In this document: positions 19,701 through 46,873 of the stretch, piece after piece
Numbering within the stretch: the stretch's first letter is position 1
How the letters are laid out: every line of letters begins with the position of its first letter
From: Sphaerodactylus townsendi
Lineage: Eukaryota
Assembly (NCBI RefSeq): GCF_021028975.2
Contig: NC_059431.1
Coordinates: 62,372,001-62,436,000 of the forward strand
Direction: 5' to 3'
DNA length: 64,000 bases
Position numbers and translations under genes: made by a program
The notes under the pieces: generated by a model
Databases searched by the model: none
Seen by the model: the letters and a program-made list of their open reading frames with translations, nothing else
Told to the model about the DNA's origin: nothing

Positions 19701-21431
19701 ATGTGTTCTGAACACGGTTTCAGACAGGCTGCTCAATTGCTGTGACTCAGTGAAGCAGAATCTACTGAAGAGTTGCTGAGGCAGAACTGAAATCGTGGCT
19801 TGCCTCAAAGAAATGACAGAGTTGTCAGCTAATTATTTTCACTTTCAAGGTTTCTTTTCTTTTCTTTTTAAAAAGCTTGTATAAGATTCTAAACCTTTAA
19901 CAACTGATGCCAGATCTTGGGATGCTTACCTAGTTGCTTGATGCTTTAGAAAACAAATAAGGTCTTGAAGACGAAAAACCAACTAATCTGTATCTGTGGG
20001 TTAAGTTTTCTCTCAACTGGATGAAGTCATTTCTACAACAAAAACTGAGCTCTACAAATGCATAATACTGCTTATCCATGTAAAACAAATGCTTATTGTT
20101 TGTGGTAAGTACTGAAAAGAGGAGTGCCTTCTATTCTGTTAACTATAAACAAGTGCATGTTAAATATAAGAGTACCATAATGAGCCCTTCGGGGGTAGAG
20201 TGGTTAAGAAATCGAATAAATAACAATAGCAATAACAATAATGTTGATGATGAAATTAGTACCCCATGTTAATTTTTGAGGTGCTGTTTGTGTATACATT
20301 CAGAAATGTTATTTGTTTTTCAATCCACTAACATCTGACTTGCTTAAGAGGCTTCAGTATTCAGAATGTTTTCTTGCAGAATCTCTGGCAAACACATTTA
20401 TTTGGGAATAAACCCCACTGGACTCAGTGTAACTTACTTTTGAGTAAACATTGATAGGATCAGGCTGCACATGACCTCAGAAATAAAGATACATTCTACA
20501 TTCATAGAATTAAGCAAAATGCTAGACCAGTTTTCCTCCAGAACATCAATTCCTGAATGCTAGTGGATTAATGAAAAATACTTTTGAATGCCAAAATGGA
20601 AGCTTTATTCATTGTACTGTTAATTTAAATGTGCTTAAGGTTCGATTCAGAGAACCCTGATTTTGTTAGATTGTTGTCACTATCTTGATGTATGTTCAAA
20701 GATTTGTACTCTTCAAACTGCAAGAAAAGCATGTTTTCTGAGTAGTGATAGTTTAGAGATCTGAACTTTGTAAGCACAAAATAACAAAATGAGATATAGA
20801 TATAACAAACCAGATGGCTTCTATTGACGGAACTAATATCAAGGACAAGCAGTGTGATGAATCATTTCACACCATACAGAGGGCAATTGATACAATCAGC
20901 AGTTTTAAGAGCCTCATACAGAAGCTAGGATTACTGTTGCTTTTACTATGAGATTCAACATATGGAACTATTTTATTGGTATATTTGGTATTTGAGACAG
21001 ATGGATCTTATTATCTACTGAAAAGCTGAGACCTTTGCTAGAGCGTATGCTATAGGAAAACAGGATATCTCAACAGATATTGGGTAACTTGATTTCCCCT
21101 CTCTGAACAGGTGCCCCATGATGTTACAGTGGAGCTGAACCAGTAACACAGTGGTGATGTGGTAAACTGGTAAAAGTAACAGATCCAACTGTCAAGTTTA
21201 AAAAGTAAATGGAAAGGATCTGCTTGATAGAACTAAGAGCATATTTCCTTGCCTGCATGTTTAAATTAATATTCGTACAAACTAGAACAGTATATTTCTA
21301 TTCTGAAGTAAGTCTGACTATGTTTATTGGAACCTACTCCCAGTGTATATATGACGGTTATCCTAATCTATTGTCTCAGGCTTGATGGAATTATAAACAT
21401 TTACCTTCAGCAAAAAGAAAGGGTAGCATAG

Positions 21432-22470
21432 CGGTGTGGGTAGCGTGATGGCCAAGTTTGCGGATGATACCAAATTATGTAGGGTGGTAAGAACCACAAA
21501 GGATTGCGAAGAGCTCCAAGTGGACCTTGATAAATTCGGTGAGTGGGCTAAGAAATGGCAAATGCAGTTCAATATAGCAAAATGTAAAGTGATGCACATA
21601 GGGGCAAAAAATCCAAACGTCACATACACGCTACAGGGGTCAGTGCTATCAGTCACAGACCAGGAAAGGGATTTGGGCGTCTTAGTTGATTGTTCCATGG
21701 GAATGTCAACTCAATGCATGGTAGCTGTGAAAAAGGCAAACTCTATGCTGGGGATAATTAGGAAAGGAATGGATAATAAAACTGCAAAGATTGTCATGCC
21801 CTTATATAAAGCAGTGGTGCGACTGCACTTGGAGTACTGTGTTCAGTTCTGGTCGCCACATCTCAAAAAGGATATCAAAGAGATAGAAAAAGTGCAGAGA
21901 AGGGCAACAAGGATGATTGAGGAACTGGAGCACCTTCCTTATGAGGAGAGGCTGCAGCGTTTGGGACTCTTTAGTTTGGAGAGCAGACGTCTGAGGGGGG
22001 ATATGACTGAAGACTATAAAATTATGCATGGGGTAGAAAATGTTGACAGAGAGAAATTTTTCTCTCTTTCTCACAATACTGGAACCAGGGGGCATACATA
22101 GAAAATGCTGGGGAGGAAGAATTGGGACTAGTAAAAGGAAACATTTCTTCACACGACGCATGATTGATGTTTGGAATATGCTGCCACAGGAGGTGGTGCT
22201 TGCCACTAACCTGGCTAGCTTTAAAAGGGGCTTGGACAGATTTATGGAGGAGAAGTTGATCTATGGCTACCAATCTTGATCCTCCTTGATCTGAGATTGC
22301 AAATGCCTTAGCAGACCAGGTGCTCGGGAGCAGCAGCAGAAGCAGCAACAGGCCATTGCTTTCACATCCTGCATGTGAGCTCCCAAAGGCACCTGGTGGG
22401 CCACTGCGAGTAGCAGAGAGCTGGACTAGATGGACTCTGGTCTGATCCAGCAGGCTCTTTCTTACGTTCT
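21432..22470 (+). mobile_element. CR1 LINE, 5'-truncated 3' end
   Basis: ORF KFADDTKL...WQMQFNIAKCKVMHIG...ERDLGVLVD...HLEYCVQFWSPHLKKDI, plus a CR1-type 3' UTR and tail. Confidence 0.95.
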
Positions 22471-39885: not shown

Positions 39886-41453
39886 AATCCACTAGTCCAG
39901 TTGAATTCACAACTATTTTCTGTTAAGTAAGGAGATCTGTTGTGGTGGAAGAACCTTGTTCTGGCTGAAGCCAGCTGTTTGATCCAACCCAGTGTCTCTA
40001 CACTAGCAAATAGCTCCTCAAACAAATTGCAGAAGGACATCACAATAGCAATAGATCTTGTGTTCCTAGCTGAGATGGAACTGCATTTTCTCACTAACAA
40101 AAGAAGGCAGCTTGACTACTGAAGGCATGCTGAATCCCTGCAACAGCAATACCTCTTCCCATCTAACACAACAAAAAGTGTACATACATTGTGTGGTAAA
40201 AATTATACAGAATAATCTTGAGAGCAAGAGAACAGAGGTATTGTTCCCACTATAAATATCAAATTCACTTCTTAACAAATACTTACTGCACCAGTCTTCA
40301 ATATTCAGAAATTTCAGCTAATCTGATTACACACTTAATTGCCTTTTGTAAAGAACAAGATGTTGCCTCCACAACTTCATAAATTAATCATTCTTTTGTT
40401 TAGCTTGAGGAGGGAAAATGCCTTTGTTCAAGTTCATTGTTTGGGTGTTTCCTTGTAACTGAAAACTTTACAAATGTTACGTGGGTGATTGAATCTCAAA
40501 AGAGACATTTGTTGAGTGTGTCAAGTGTTCATGTATTATAACATTTCTTTGGAACCAGAGAGCCTCTTGTCTTTGCCTCACAATCCTTTTGGTGTCACTC
40601 GAACTGCTCATGTGACAGAATTCTAATATGGAAAGAGACAAAACGCATTGTTAAGGACACAAACAAAGGCTGCTTCCTGGAACACTGTGTCACAAGATTC
40701 CCAGGGTCACAGCCTCCTTGCTTTGCACACATGAGAAGCACTATTGAAATCAAAGTACGACTCAAGTCTCCAAAGGAGCTGTTCCACATGAAGGAACTCT
40801 TCTTGGCAGAATTCAGGGCCTGTTTATTACACTGCTGTGATTGACATCAGGAACCAGCCTACAGTTGTCATTGCAGTTGTCCTCATTTTACACTCATGTG
40901 AGATCCATGGATTTAGACATTTATTTAAAGGACCTACACACCCCTCCTATGGGACTACAGAATCTCAAAGCAGCTTGCAGTAATTACAACTAACTGAAGT
41001 TACCTCACAAACAAAGCTATGACTAGAGGTCATGAGTACAGGCTGGATTGACTTGTGCCTCATACATTCCCATAAATAAGTCCAAGTTTGGCGTGAACTG
41101 TACCCTCAGTGTGGAACCACAGGCACTCTCAGTTCTCCCACGAATAAGATAATATGGTGGTTTATCATATGAGGAGAGGGAGCAATCCATAAGATCCTCT
41201 GACTTCAACTAGAGAGAAAGAGGTACTTGACACAGAACCTAGCTCCTTTTGGTTTGTGATTAGAGAGCAACTGTAACCTCTTTCATTCTCAATCTCCCTC
41301 TTTGTCTCTTTTTTAATCTGTATCTTTTCAGCCTCACCTGTGTTCTGCATTCTTTGCTCAGTTCATGAGTATGATGTTAATCCCCCAGCTGGCCTTTAGT
41401 AATGAAAGGTCATTGTTCTCATGAAGGTTTCCCTAATACTCATGAGTACTAAT

Positions 41454-41932
41454 TGTAGTCGTGCCCGCAGGGTCGTCGTAATAATGAGACGAGACGTGGA
41501 GATACCATCTGGTGGAGAGAGCCAGCAGCAGGGAGCGCGGGATCCCATGCCGTGGATCCGGCTACTCTGCCTTGTGCTAGGCTCGGGCTCCTTTTATTAG
41601 GGTTTACAAGAGGGGGGGCTACGTGGGCGGACCGGGAGGCAGGAGAGCAGGAGAGCAGGAGATCATCATGTGATGCATGATCTCATCGGGCTGTTACGTG
41701 CAGGAGGAAGTGTCCGTGTCTGGGTCTAATCCACACCTGGGGGCAAGGGCTCCCATTGTCCCTTTGTCCTGGGACACCTGGTGGCTGCCAGAGCCAGGTA
41801 GTTCATGACCCTGTGACTCTCACGGGGTGTGGGGGATGGGGGAAGCCCAGTGCGACCAGAAGGCACGTAGTTGGGCCAGCATGCCAAGCACTCTGCCCTG
41901 CAGTTCTGCTGGGTCAGCGGCTCATCCCTACA
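41454..41932 (-). repeat. 3' LTR of the ERV (479 bp)
   Basis: Direct repeat of 46321-46792, preceded on the minus strand by the PPT. Confidence 0.95.
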
Positions 41933-41945
41933 TCTCCTCCCTTTT
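41933..41945 (-). promoter_or_regulatory. Polypurine tract
   Basis: Minus strand AAAAGGGAGGAGA abuts the TG of the 3' LTR. Confidence 0.9.
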
Positions 41946-42559
41946 GCATTTTAGGAAGGAAGCCCGAATTGGTTTGGGACAATTTAAGGGGATGCTCACA
42001 CCTCCTCAGCTATTTGCCCAAGCTGAGTCGAGGCTGCTTGTGCAACATGAGAACCTGGTTGTGAGCGTAGGGGAAAGTCAAAGGGTCTCTTACACACATT
42101 ATAAAGCGCAGCTAGGAATACATTACATAGAGAAGGTTTTCAGCAATAAGGCAGCTAATCAAACCAATGCAGAGTGCGGAACAAAAGTATAGCCATCTTG
42201 CAACTCACATACTTTCATATGAGCTAACAACAATAAGCAAATCCCAATGGCGGCATGGTATCTGAGGTTTGTAGACCAAGCTCTTGCGGCCGGGAGGCCA
42301 GAGCATCCAGAGCAGTCGAGGTGGAGATGATGGACTTCGCTTGAGGCTGAGGCCAGAGCCCGGCCCGACAGTCTTAGTGATTACAGGAAACAAGTCCGGG
42401 GACTCCACCAGGGGGGGAGGTCACGAGGGAAACCTCTCTCCTGCCTGGGGAGGGCAGCATTAAGCTCCGGTGAGAGGAGTCGAGGGGAAGGGCAGAGGCG
42501 GTGGCGACGCATGCAGGACTCCTAGGAGGTGGAGCCTGAGGCAGAACTTGATAATGCCA

Positions 42560-44520
42560 AGCTGGCTGAGACAGCAGAGAGTCCCAGTGGAAGGATGGCC
42601 GAGGATGGAACAAGCAACAAATAGCATAATTTCTAAAATCAAGGCATGCAACAACACCAGCGATCAGTTGGGTTACAGTACTCGATAATTCCTTTGGAGA
42701 TTGACTCCAAAAGGCATCATACAAAATGGAAACAATAAACATGGCTAAACAATGCAAAAGCTAGGTGATGAAGGGAAAGGAGGGCAGCCCATGGCTGCAT
42801 AATTATCCAATGCACGGCTCTTGCTGTTTTATTGCAAAGCCTTTAGAGCGATGGTGGTAGAGTCCATGGATTTCTCAAGAGCGTAGAGAGAGAGCTACTG
42901 ATAGTCTTTAGCATTTCAAGTTCAGTGACTCTCCACGAGCAAGGCTGCAACAGAAGGCATGTTCCGATAACAATCAATTGTAGCTGGAAACAGCGGAGAG
43001 TTCCAAAGGTTAACCTATCAGGAATGTTCCTGGCTGCAACTTCAAACTCCAGCCAGGGGGCGGCAGTGACAGAGAGAATAGCTGACTGTAGATGAGGAGC
43101 AGCGACACACAGCGTCAACCTCCTGAGCCATAGCTGGCCCAGGCTGAGCACCTTCCCCGGAGGTGGGGGCAGCGAGGACTGCGGTCTCCCAGGTAAGAGT
43201 ATGGGTAATGCCGGCTCCAAGAGAGATCCCTCCTGTTTAGGCCCAGGCTGGGTGGGGGGGGCGATCGTGCCCTCTCAACAAGACACGACTTTCCTGCGTC
43301 CCTGGGATTAGGTTGGCCCCATCCCGAGTTGGAATCCTGTGTGGAAGAGAAAAGACAAGCAAGGCTTTTTCCCCGGGGGGGTTTGCGGCACTGCTGAGTT
43401 AGTATAGAGAATAGTACTTTGGATATGGTCTGCTGGATGAGACCTTGATTGGGTCGATAGGGGGGACTACTCCCCTTTCTTTAGTTTGTTTTGGCCAGCA
43501 GCTTTCCTTAGGTACAGTTGGCCCATTCCGACAACGATCACTTGCAACAATCAAAGTTAAAAACACACAAGGCAGAGAGTTGCCCGAAGGCTTAGGAGAA
43601 GGGAGAGGTCACATCCAGGTCGGGTGTTTGTTTGTAAAACAATCCCAATCACCGTCTAAAGTGTAGGAGTTTTTTTTGCAAAGCAACTTAAACAATTCAC
43701 AATTATAGTCATATCATTAATATAGCAATCCATAGGAAAAGATTTAGAGAGAAGCGCAAAGAAAACAGTTCCTATGGGCTTGAGGTTTGATCACCACGAG
43801 CAGCTTAGCAGAGAGGTTTGCAAAGCCCTTTATCAGATCCTAGATCTAGAGGTGGGAGATGCGTCAGCCCATTCGAGGTAAGGTGGGTGTGCAGAAGAGA
43901 AGGCAAGGGGGGGAAAGGAGTTTGGAGAAGTTGGCTCTACCTTCCCCCCCCGTAAGGAGACTTTGGCGGGTTTGGGCTAAGCTTCCTACCTTCACTGCGG
44001 AGGCTGTGTAAGATAGGTAATGGCTGAGGAAATCCCCTAGCACTGTGACTAGCCAGGTGGCGCTCAACCAAGAAAATGTGGGAGCATGGAAATAATTCTG
44101 GCTTCACCTATAAACAGCCACGCCAATGTGGCAGTGTGGAGGCTCAGAGTAGAACAAAGAAAGGGTTCTCAAGGAAAAGCGAAACCAAGAAAGAGCTTTG
44201 AGGGTTTAAAACTAGAATGGAGGAGGTAACTTGAAGCAGATTCCAATGGCATCCCAGGGAGCACTGTGCCCCTTAAAGAGGCTGATGTCATAATGGGTGG
44301 AAACTTTTTTTTTTTCAAGGCATAGGTACACATAATCAAAGGGAGGAAAACTTTAGATTCAGGAGTGCAAGAGTACGGCTTAGAAATGATGGAAGGGGAG
44401 CCCCTCTCATGGAAAGGGAGGGAAAACTTTAGGGGTCTCTTTACAGAGACCAAGACACACAGAATATACATAAGCATACATAATACAATGAGGAGGAGGG
44501 TTTGTGAACGACTCAAGATC
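42560..44520 (-). pseudogene. env: Decayed env-like region
   Basis: Lies between a splice acceptor and the PPT. Hydrophobic signal-like stretch LLLIVLCMLMYILCVLV near 44500, Cys-rich middle, then MPSVAAL (42960-42940), LEKSMDSTTIALKALQ* (42879-42829), ALDNYAA (42813-42793) and a hydrophobic segment. Many frameshifts; limits approximate. Confidence 0.6.
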
Positions 44521-45549
44521 CTTTTTTTAAAATCCAGTGAAGGCTTAATAAGCAGGCTGAAAAAAAAGTGTGGTTAGTCTTTTTGTCCCAATTCTGTAGG
44601 AGGAGTGTTTCCAAGCTGGATCATTTTTTTATTGAACATACAAGTGAAAACACACCTAAGAGGAGGCGACATGAGTGTAAACATCTAGGCTTCTTGTCCC
44701 AGCCCCTCCTCAGGAGGGGGGAGGGGTTAGCCGCTCTTCGTTTTTCTGTGGAAGAAGAGAGGGTTAGGTGGGGAGTCGATGAGGAAGTTGTGCAAGCCTT
44801 TGTTTTTCTATGGGCTGGATTTGAAACCCATTTGATCTGGACACTAGAAACAAGCAAGTGTTGGATTTTTTTTAGCAGAAGGTGGCTATATCAGGACTTG
44901 AGAAACTTACTCTCTGGATCTACTTAGGCGGTTCAGCCTAGCAGGACTGGGATTCACCTGCCCTTCCTGGGGTACTAATGATTTTTGCTGCCACTGGGGG
45001 CTTTAGGCTTAGGGCTTTGCACGGGCTCCAGAGGGCTGTGAGATCTGGTTTGAACCCCTTACCACAGGTGGAGGGGGCCAGGGGGGCACCTTCTTTATGA
45101 AGGACTCTGGAAGCTTAAGGCCATCGTCTTGAGAGCATCTTCCCTCTCTCCGCGCCTCATTGTCCTGTAGATTGGCTATAGGACATTCTGAGGAAGGGTC
45201 AAAGCGGCAGTCCTTTTGGTTGAGTAGAGGCGGACTGGGCATAGTGCCAGAATGTTAGCGTCTTCTTTAAAATCAGCGACTCTTTCTGCTGCAATTCAGG
45301 GGTTATGGACTCTGCAGAAGATTTTTGATATGCACGCCACTCTGTGGCACTGATTGGGAGAGCATGGTGACTTTCAGAAATAGAAGGAGGCTAGCAGAGC
45401 GGGAAGCATAGACGCATGAAGGAGAGCAAGCAACGAGATTTAAGGCAAGCTGAGCTTAGATTGGAATTCGAGTGAGAGCATAGAGGCAGAAGGATTGGAT
45501 GGGAGGCCGGACATTGGACCTGGCGAGAAGGTAGGCATCATCTTCCGTC

Positions 45550-46121
45550 AGGGTTTCCTTCCTCCGCAGATAAAGGTTTTGAAACCAGCGCCATTGCGTG
45601 GCAGCTGTGACGGAGGAGATCTTGGTGGCTTCAGAAAATGAAGAGGCCGAGGAGTGGGCCGGAAGGCAGTACGAAGGGAGGAGGCGGCCCGAGCCGTGGG
45701 AGGATCCGAAGGCGGGGGGGAAGCAAGGGAGGCAGAAAGAAAGAGGACGAAGGCGTCCAGTTTAGTGGATAGAGAAAGTTCTGGGGGGTGAGAGTGAAGC
45801 TGAAGGAGTCGAAAGGAGGGCGATCTATGGCAAGAGAGAGCCATAGACCTGCTACGAGCTGATGGCGACATAACATTGCCTCCACGTCAGTAGCGGTGAC
45901 ATGTGTGCGCGAGGCTCTCTGTGCAAGAAGTGCGCCCGATGTTTTCCCAATCCATAAGATTCAATGTCCCCCTTTCTAGGTACCATGGACATTGAGCTTC
46001 AATCTCCTCAAGCAATTTGCACAGCTCCCCTCTCTTCTGAGGAGACCCTGCAGCTTTTTAGCTAAAGCACTTTCAATTCGGTAACGTGATTGTCACTAGC
46101 CCTGCTTTTGCAAGCCCCCAT
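45550..46121 (-). pseudogene. gag: Disrupted gag (matrix plus proline-rich region)
   Basis: Starts MGACKS at 46121 (possible myristoylation Gly). After a stop and frameshift, 46027-45932 reads ELCKLLEEIEAQCPWYLERGTLNLMDWENIGR, matching the betaretroviral matrix motif CPW(F/Y)xxxGTL.L.DW..IG. Proline-rich sequence follows. The 3' limit is approximate. Confidence 0.85.
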
Positions 46122-46300
46122 ACTTACCGTTGTTTACCGTCCGGACAAGAGGAGAAGTGTCCTAGAGCACTCGGGTCCCCTGGATGCGCCGATCCAGCAG
46201 GCGAGCGATACCGAGCAGTGGAGTCCCTGGATGCACCGATCCAGCGGGCGTGATTACCTTGACCCTTTCCCAAGCGGCCGCGGGGTGGAGGTTTGAGGAT

Positions 46301-46318
46301 TCCCGGGTTTCGGCACCA
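46301..46318 (-). promoter_or_regulatory. Primer-binding site, tRNA-Phe
   Basis: Minus strand TGGTGCCGAAACCCGGGA, 2 nt from the LTR, complementary to the 3' 18 nt of vertebrate tRNA-Phe(GAA) (TCCCGGGTTTCGGCACCA). Confidence 0.93.
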
Positions 46319-46320
46319 GT

Positions 46321-46792
46321 TGTAAGTCATGCCCGCAGAGGTGCGACCATTAATGTGGGCGGGACACAGAGATACCATCTGGTGGAGAGAGCCAGCAGCA
46401 GGGAGCGCGGGATCCCATGCCGTGGATCCGGCTACTCTGCCTTGTGCTAGGCTCGGGCTCCTTTTATTAGGGTTTACAAGAGGGGGGGCTACGTGGGCGG
46501 ACCGGGAGGCAGGAGAGCAGGAGAGCAGGAGATCATCATGTGATGCATGATCTCATCGGGCTGTTACGTGCAGGAGGAAGCGTCCGTGTCTGGGTCTAAT
46601 CCACACCTGGGGGCAAGGGCCCAGTTGTCCCTTTGTCTGGGACACCTGGTGGCTGTGAGCCAGGTAGTTCATGACCTGTGACTCACCGGGGGGTGGGGGA
46701 TGGGAGAGCGGGTGCGACCAGAAGGCCGTAGTTGGGCCGGCATGCCAAGCACTCTGCCTACGGTTCTGCTGGGTCAGCGGCTCATCCCTACA
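46321..46792 (-). repeat. 5' LTR of the ERV (472 bp)
   Basis: Direct repeat of 41454-41932. On the minus strand it begins TGTAGGGATG, ends GACTTACA, contains AATAAAAG and is followed by the PBS. Confidence 0.95.
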
Positions 46793-46873
46793 ACTAATGA
46801 AGAATTAGAACTTTCCACCATATCCACAGAACAGCTCTGTTTCCTATCCTCTACTTTTCCTCTGTCTCTAGAG

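Follow-up and report, generated by a model that had tools for sequence, protein, structure and literature searches.

A pol-less gecko provirus and its beta-like retrovirus family, in which gene sets are divided between two defective proviral types

We analysed a window of 64,000 nucleotides from the gecko Sphaerodactylus townsendi (NCBI RefSeq assembly GCF_021028975.2, contig NC_059431.1, positions 62,372,001 to 62,436,000), which contains a pol-less provirus, and the retrovirus family to which that provirus belongs. The RAG1 gene of the host is closest to a Gekko record, at 95% versus 91-92% for other lizards, in keeping with a gecko host. The provirus lies on the minus strand at 41448..46798 and is bounded by two ACTAAT hexamers, which form a target-site duplication (TSD) at 41448..41453 on the left and 46793..46798 on the right (plus strand); all other features of the element are given on the minus strand. 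Its long terminal repeats (LTRs) both have the form TG...CA, with a 5' LTR of 472 nt at 46321..46792 (AATAAA at 46468) and a 3' LTR of 479 nt at 41454..41932 (AATAAA at 41598). A polypurine tract occupies 41933..41945, and an 18-nt primer-binding site for tRNA-Phe(GAA) is located 2 nt from the 5' LTR at 46301..46318. The 3' ends of two host tRNA-Phe(GAA) genes account for fifteen of its bases, and the remaining three, at its end, pair with the CCA that is added to tRNA 3' ends. A gag remnant at 45522..46121 starts with an ATG at 46121, from which it reads MGACKS, and comprises matrix and a proline-rich region in frames that are broken in the present assembly; the matrix stretch matches Gag_p10 at 7e-9. 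These features bear out an earlier, sequence-only reading of the window, which had reported both LTRs, an exact 6-bp ACTAAT duplication, a polypurine tract, an 18/18 tRNA-Phe primer site, an MG- gag start and a retroviral matrix motif.

Within the 4388-nt interior, capsid, nucleocapsid, protease, reverse transcriptase (RT) and most of env are gone. A motif scan of the provirus detected neither YxDD nor a retroviral D[TS]G nor CCHC in sense orientation; the antisense strand has one DSG. The earlier statement that no protease, RT or integrase-core motif is present stands for the first two and needs amendment for integrase, of which a small remnant persists at 43361..43537 (tblastn E 4e-5; blastn 77% over 119 nt to locus L063). 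Similarly, the suggested LTR-gag'-env'-LTR layout is right in being pol-less and too generous to the genes: gag is limited to matrix and the proline-rich region, and env to a remnant at 41950..42591 that holds the end of the surface subunit (SU) and a transmembrane subunit (TM) with an internal deletion (tblastn with the L028 and L029 env, E 1e-14 and 1e-9). A decayed region at 42245..43098 is homologous to the stretch behind integrase in the RT-bearing copies described below as type B (blastn 71% to L062). A passenger body of about 1.7 kb, with approximate limits 43540..45260, is common to all passenger copies of the family. Its origin is without a family match: no credible profile match was found among the 12 type A, type B and complete-layout copies searched, no Pfam match in the frames tested, and no Rfam match. 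Next to it, at approximately 45260..45520 as positioned through sister copies, the proline-rich post-matrix gag region occurs a second time in degenerate form (42-45% identity matches in L002-L004; profile matches to gag of all types).

The interior of the window copy is likely under-polished assembly, noise rather than biology. Private changes amount to 12.6 per 100 nt at 41750..46359 versus 1.4-1.8 in the outer LTR parts, and they are biased toward insertions, with about 110 private insertions versus 10-14 deletions relative to the sister copies L002, L003 and L004. These three differ from one another by 1.6-1.9% and from the window copy by 8.8%. Among the best-supported rows of a comparison with reads, 35 of 40 read differences and 11 of 12 left-out letters correspond to the sister-copy state (222 and 105 further rows exist), and nearly all read depth at the inner sites listed carries a letter other than that of the assembly. 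Because of this noise, the broken frames and the 92% identity of the LTR pair are likely not biological. All 20 substitutions and 16 gaps that separate the two LTRs are in their inner parts, within the noisy stretch, and we rejected LTR dating of this copy on that ground. Discordance of the LTRs through gene conversion or a heterozygous virion was disfavoured, since reads restore the sister-copy letters.

The insertion itself is real, because single-copy contigs from two read runs (X1 and X2, with 0 and 2 flank differences from the window) cross the junction of the flank and the 3' LTR. Organism B shows 5 differences from the window over 1154 nt of flank, and the alignment of one of its contigs stops exactly at 41453, beyond which the contig runs on for 99 letters. 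This suggests that this close relative likely carries an empty site and that the window insertion is likely young or polymorphic. On whether pol is hidden here through assembly collapse, no read spans the element, yet the pol-less layout is found at other loci. In an RNA run of another species (X12), 1481 of 16.8 million reads aligned, 21 of them at 99% or more and both strands alike; these were not assignable to a type and were not used.

The pol-less body of the window element recurs at many loci, in a capsid-less passenger form (type C) and a passenger form with a fuller gag (type Cg). Six other C copies (L002, L003, L004, L121, L043 and L044) carry this body between their own 5-6 bp TSDs, and one of them, L003, is young, with 2 differences in 469 LTR positions and a TSD. 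Taken together, the window element is almost certainly a trans-mobilised passenger, in agreement with the sequence-only proposal of a class II element that is non-autonomous but retains its cis signals. The 6-bp duplication offered as a class II hallmark applies to the window copy and varies across the family, with 6 bp in 14, 5 bp in nine and no duplication in seven of the 30 copies with both ends called. In matrix, C copies differ by up to 9% from other clean C copies and by 1-4% from the closest copy of type A, type Cg or complete layout, which suggests that passengers likely renew their 5' end through recombination. Fused passenger frames of 437-504 aa occur in 4 of 10 C copies and of more than 600 aa in 7 of 16 Cg copies. 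The passenger frame has 12 shared indels per 742 nt, versus 77 per 1250 nt behind it, and none of the 12 is a multiple of 3; the ratio of nonsynonymous to synonymous change (omega) of the passenger body is 0.3-1.8, and the chance of no stop at 6% divergence is 0.26. We also observed a reverse-inserted LTR of another subfamily within a passenger copy (L043:3432-3878), an integrase-RT fragment, presumably copia-like, adjoining the passenger copy in the L010 / L121 flank, and solo LTRs of the family (L033, L034, L036, L037 and L039-L041), among which L033 is 99% identical to a passenger LTR.

The genes that a helper would provide are divided between two defective types in the sampled loci. Type A copies contain gag, dUTPase-protease and env, and type B copies bear RT and have the protease active site and SU deleted. 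Genome searches returned 2101 protease, 2458 SU and 174 RT-thumb candidates, which are not copy numbers; the best-scored 150 of 2101 (protease), 150 of 174 (RT thumb) and 40 of 1427 (protease-RT junction) were taken. All come from a single noisy assembly, and about 37 RT-thumb matches on small contigs, apart from two contigs, lay outside the sample. RT was absent in 28 of 28 type A copies, all of which have the same 700-nt insert at the former place of pol (L028:3563-4256). This insert, which also occurs in some Cg recombinants and has a short internal inverted match, gave no Pfam, Rfam or family match, and it could be an RNA export or packaging element. The gag, pro and full-length env frames are open in five of the seven young type A copies checked.

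Type B copies are the counterpart. RT was present in 47 of the 55 loci picked by RT or integrase matches, and 39 of these 47 lack both protease and SU, protease being kept in eight. Capsid and RT are in phase in 25 of 43 B copies, 15 of which are stop-free, and a DTG motif is found in 1 of 43 B copies versus 25 of 26 A copies. The type B frame keeps matrix, capsid, one zinc knuckle, RT, RNase H and integrase; in L062, L125 and L145 it extends over 1596 aa as a Gag-RT-RNase H-integrase frame without RVP. The SU deletions end at similar places in most B copies, and the deletion limits together with the RT tree (below) lend moderate support to the view that the protease active site was lost twice from the pol component. 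Both types include young copies with a TSD, exemplified by L093 for type A (0/447 LTR differences) and L068 for type B (0/446). Among B copies, L046 has its integrase region inverted (L046:5509-6483), and many small contigs of 10-13 kb in assembly G000, such as C486 (L125), C1269 (L145) and C475 (L124), contain nearly identical B or Cg copies arranged head to tail at periods of 5.0-6.6 kb, which suggests tandem arrays, circles or assembler loops.

In the sampled loci, the helper virus invoked by the sequence-only reading does not take the form of one intact virus with all genes. Protease, RT, integrase and SU occur together in three of the 55 pol-picked loci, L049, L074 and L076, which have broken frames and a second LTR that is missing, partial or 88% identical. 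A DNA search over the protease-RT junction gave seven full-length matches in the best 40 of 1427, 87-89% alike to the query apart from the self match. No young complete provirus was found among the 55 loci or among the best-scored candidates of the protease, thumb and junction searches of this assembly, in which complete copies are scarce and decayed. Four copies with SU deleted retain protease and RT (L063, LTRs 98.7%; L064, LTRs 96.6%; L065; L126), and pro is in frame into pol in L063 and L064. L131 and L143 have lost most of RT and were excluded from the complete-layout count; L131 (G000:C6:60064100-60074099) represents an independent pol deletion, with RT and RNase H lost and protease, integrase and env kept.

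The genes kept by each type are under purifying selection. Omega was computed on variants common to at least two copies, with disjoint pairs as a second estimate. For type A it was 0.06 in protease, 0.13 in SU and 0.10 in TM, and for type B 0.08 in RT and 0.06 in integrase; the decayed B linker, which served as a neutral control, gave 0.77. Disjoint pairs gave 0.08-0.11 for protease, 0.15-0.24 for SU, 0.08-0.30 for RT and 0.06-0.15 for integrase, at a synonymous difference (pS) of 0.35-0.63. We conclude that the protease and env of type A and the RT and integrase of type B were used after the split. Selection on such trans-acting genes may have operated through cis preference or through few active loci per cell.

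Types A and B also share their 5' ends. In an LTR tree of 90 copies, the A label changes 15 times and the B label 18 times, at least 11 of these changes being forced by strong branches, and at least five LTR groupings each contain both types. LTRs of the youngest B copies differ by 1.1-1.3% from an A LTR, compared with 16% from a complete-layout one. In the youngest A/B clade, the two types are 0.6% apart in matrix, and this distance grows to 5.7% over the proline-rich region and to 16% and 17% over capsid and TM. Co-packaging with template switching would be expected to yield such copies, in which an old body is joined to a recently shared 5' end. Collapsed repeats and mis-polishing could instead have produced most of the reciprocal layouts and shared ends as artefacts, and the visible noise in the window copy and L027, the tandem near-identical copies on small contigs and the copies without a TSD count in favour of such an explanation. 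We give it little credence, because 23 of the 30 called copies have 5-6 bp TSDs, the mixed LTR groupings do not reduce to one averaged LTR, capsid beside the shared matrix is still 16% apart, and noise would raise omega rather than lower it.

A further explanation is that a complete helper, either an exogenous gecko virus or intact proviruses outside the assembly, mobilises types A, B and C alike as its passengers. Dependence on a complete helper is the usual pattern, as for ETn on MusD and IAP 1-delta-1 on full-length IAP (PMC6466679, PMC6407205). Complete-layout copies do exist in this noisy assembly, of which only the best-scored candidates were examined. However, each type has a common lesion (the insert in 28 of 28 A copies, similar SU deletion ends in most B copies), yet the kept genes stand at a pS of 0.35-0.63 with omega near 0.1. 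Pure passengers are not expected to retain exactly reciprocal gene sets, and no sampled complete copy comes nearer than 16% to the LTRs of the youngest A and B copies. Given this evidence we regard a complete helper as unlikely, while according it real weight.

We think it probable that the helper of this family is the A and B pair itself, a two-component retrovirus with passengers. Type A would supply Gag, Gag-Pro with its protease, and Env, and type B would supply a protease-free Gag-Pol in which gag is fused in frame to RT-RNase H-integrase. The B Gag-Pol would be drawn into A-built particles through its Gag part and then cut by the protease of type A. Both types are inherited in every cell, and hence no co-infection would be needed. 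A, B and passenger RNAs would be co-packaged, and template switching would swap the LTR-leader-matrix block, which would keep promoters and packaging signals matched; the window element would be copied by this resident helper and need only its own cis signals. We infer particle formation, trans cleavage, co-packaging and obligate dependence from the layouts, the selection and the shared 5' block. In HIV-1, an in-frame Gag-Pol does not bud alone and is incorporated in trans by Gag at 1:10, and when its protease is active and it is overexpressed the yield is lower (PMC8994222). By analogy, loss of the frameshifts may accompany loss of protease because excess protease lowers yield. In its fullest form, the proposal is of an obligately bipartite germ-line retrovirus, in which a Gag-protease-Env and a protease-free Gag-Pol component have co-evolved far from their complete ancestor, the ratio of A to B RNA takes over the role of the pol frameshift, the pol component has probably lost its protease site on two occasions, and the pair carries tiers of passengers, the window element among them; we put this form at an even chance.

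Type B might alternatively be autonomous, with unprocessed or host-processed Gag-Pol acting as an intracellular retrotransposon and types A and C as its parasites. It does carry its domains from matrix through to integrase in a single frame, under purifying selection. However, retroviral RT and integrase need release by protease, and the omega of 0.06 on the protease of type A would be left unexplained. Type B would furthermore produce Gag only as part of Gag-Pol, and HIV-1 Gag-Pol by itself yielded no particles (PMC8994222), which makes an autonomous type B quite improbable.

Several observations weigh against a two-component helper. The partly deleted TM of type B and the capsid of Cg copies also show low omega (0.22 and 0.12), which raises the possibility that low omega results from recombination with working genes. 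One noisy assembly could have missed a young complete provirus through collapse, through polymorphism or because the virus is exogenous, and L063, L064, L065 and L126, with protease and RT, could have fed enzymes to part of the family. The type A sample is biased toward relatives of L028, and in the present assembly capsid and RT do not share a phase in 18 of 43 B copies. The LTR clade of the window element comprises passengers only, with the nearest A at 7.9% and the nearest B at 8.3%; its direct helper pair was therefore not sampled. Seven of the 30 called copies are without a TSD, including the B copies L051 and L067 with near-identical LTRs; some of these are likely chimeric joins, and polishing could merge shared regions.

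With respect to classification, LTR, leader or matrix of the window element recurs in 19 of the 20 RT-thumb loci that were retrieved first. The RT of this helper family has YMDD, with Pfam RVT_thumb, Integrase_Zn and IN_DBD_C present, and its best PDB match is 7sr6, which we take to be the HERV-K RT, at 327 bits versus 158 for HIV-2. Its homologues are annotated as ERV-K-like, with 56-62% identity to turtle, cobra, monitor, wall lizard and garter snake records. In an unrooted RT tree of 46 rows, hand-picked from 120 listed proteins and 17 loci tried, with no alpha or lenti outgroup and no EAV-HP or ALV, the family is a separate clade placed with reptile sequences, with a 100/99 split between it and the SRV, IAP and bird sequences. 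These results agree with the expectation that the helper RT falls within class II, and in this unrooted tree it is placed with reptile sequences rather than nested among exogenous betaretroviruses, outside the genus Betaretrovirus proper. The layout is betaretrovirus-like, with dUTPase and RVP in a separate frame and zf-CCHC and zf-CCHC_5 knuckles; pro is in -1 phase in 18 of 26 A copies, with GGGAAAC at the overlap in 7 of 7 checked. The integrase matches 3jca, presumably MMTV integrase, at 195 bits versus 154 for RSV-type entries. The separate pro frame with dUTPase and an integrase nearer to MMTV-type than RSV-type entries set the family apart from alpharetroviruses.

The env gene has a different affinity. 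Rather than a beta-type TM with two cysteines and no immunosuppressive domain (ISD), type A TM has CX6CC and an ISD-like LDNRAAIDYLLL. Type A env gave TLV_coat and Ebola-like HR1-HR2 matches and a weak Avian_gp85 match (E 0.044) below cut-off, and the L028 env frame, judged by the criteria of PMC3758190, is of the avian-gamma, alpharetrovirus-like type; in the window copy these motifs are deleted or garbled. Env identity is 43-44% to Mabuya Mab3/Mab4, which rank with the closest named matches and belong to a reptile alpha-like group (PMC13568524), and 39-46% to turtle records. Beta-like reptile endogenous retroviruses are already known (PMC6001957). On these sequence characters, we class the family as beta-like class II; its RT belongs to a reptile clade and its env is alpha-like. 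A Caretta caretta gene model (P0121) has dUTPase, protease and env domains without pol, and is maybe a pol-less turtle relative or a product of gene-model splicing. Elsewhere in the window, positions 21427-22101 contain a 224-aa open frame that may be the RT tail of a CR1-type long interspersed nuclear element.

Known systems resemble parts of this arrangement. The window element works like mouse ETn, a non-coding class II passenger that has LTRs and cis signals, is trans-mobilised and has ends in common with coding relatives; its helper, MusD, is a single element that is coding-competent and has no env (PMC6466679), whereas in the gecko family the sampled loci gave no young complete helper and type A retains an env under selection. 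Mouse IAP 1-delta-1 parallels type B in that an internal deletion yields an in-frame gag-pol fusion in a non-autonomous element, and the IAP fusion helps in cis. It needs gag and pol proteins from other IAPs (PMC6466679), whereas in type B purifying selection has maintained RT, RNase H and integrase, which would make B the pol donor. Chicken EAV-HP, to which the window element had been likened, resembles it in layout only: pol is gone entirely and gag and env in part, and the EAV-HP env is of the avian-gamma kind (PMC12523071). In contrast, the gecko family has a dUTPase and a separate pro frame, and its RT groups with squamate and turtle sequences, apart from the birds tested, in a tree without EAV-HP or ALV.

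The grass pararetroviruses ePVCVL and ePVCVL2 are likewise two complementary non-autonomous partners, one with capsid and the other with RT, whose regulatory regions are homogenised by recombination. These are plant DNA viruses without LTRs or integrase, whereas the gecko partners are heritable proviruses of one vertebrate retrovirus, divided into protease and env versus pol (PMC5491270). PyERV and the squamate-turtle Shui clade resemble the gecko family in their reptile beta-like class II RT (56-62%) and Mab3/Mab4-like env (PMC3758190, PMC6001957, PMC13568524). PyERV differs in having a murine-gamma-like env rather than the avian-gamma-type TM found here, and the gecko family is a distinct clade (100/99). 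The available parts of these three papers describe no split organisation of reptile beta-like endogenous retroviruses. Canine CfERV-Fc1(a) comprises defective proviruses whose spread by trans complementation was deduced from shared lesions; it is class I, with 19 proviruses analysed and no stable reciprocal pair described in the parts available (PMC6407205).

The window element alone is an ordinary passenger, and the organisation of its family is the unusual part. To our knowledge, retroviruses are regarded as single-genome viruses, and defective endogenous copies as dependent on a complete helper. In the literature covered, which lay mostly outside subscription journals and did not extend to Repbase or Dfam, we found no vertebrate retrovirus so organised and no account of this gecko family. 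If our reading is true, a stable, selected reciprocal pair would amount to natural genome segmentation in a vertebrate retrovirus. An env-keeping lineage could then attain high copy number, as the 2458 SU and 2101 protease candidates versus 174 for the RT thumb would suggest, although candidates are not copies. On the same condition, a genome without a complete provirus may wrongly be called free of active retroviruses. With complete, intermediate and split forms in one genome, the steps toward multipartite genomes would become datable and orderable.

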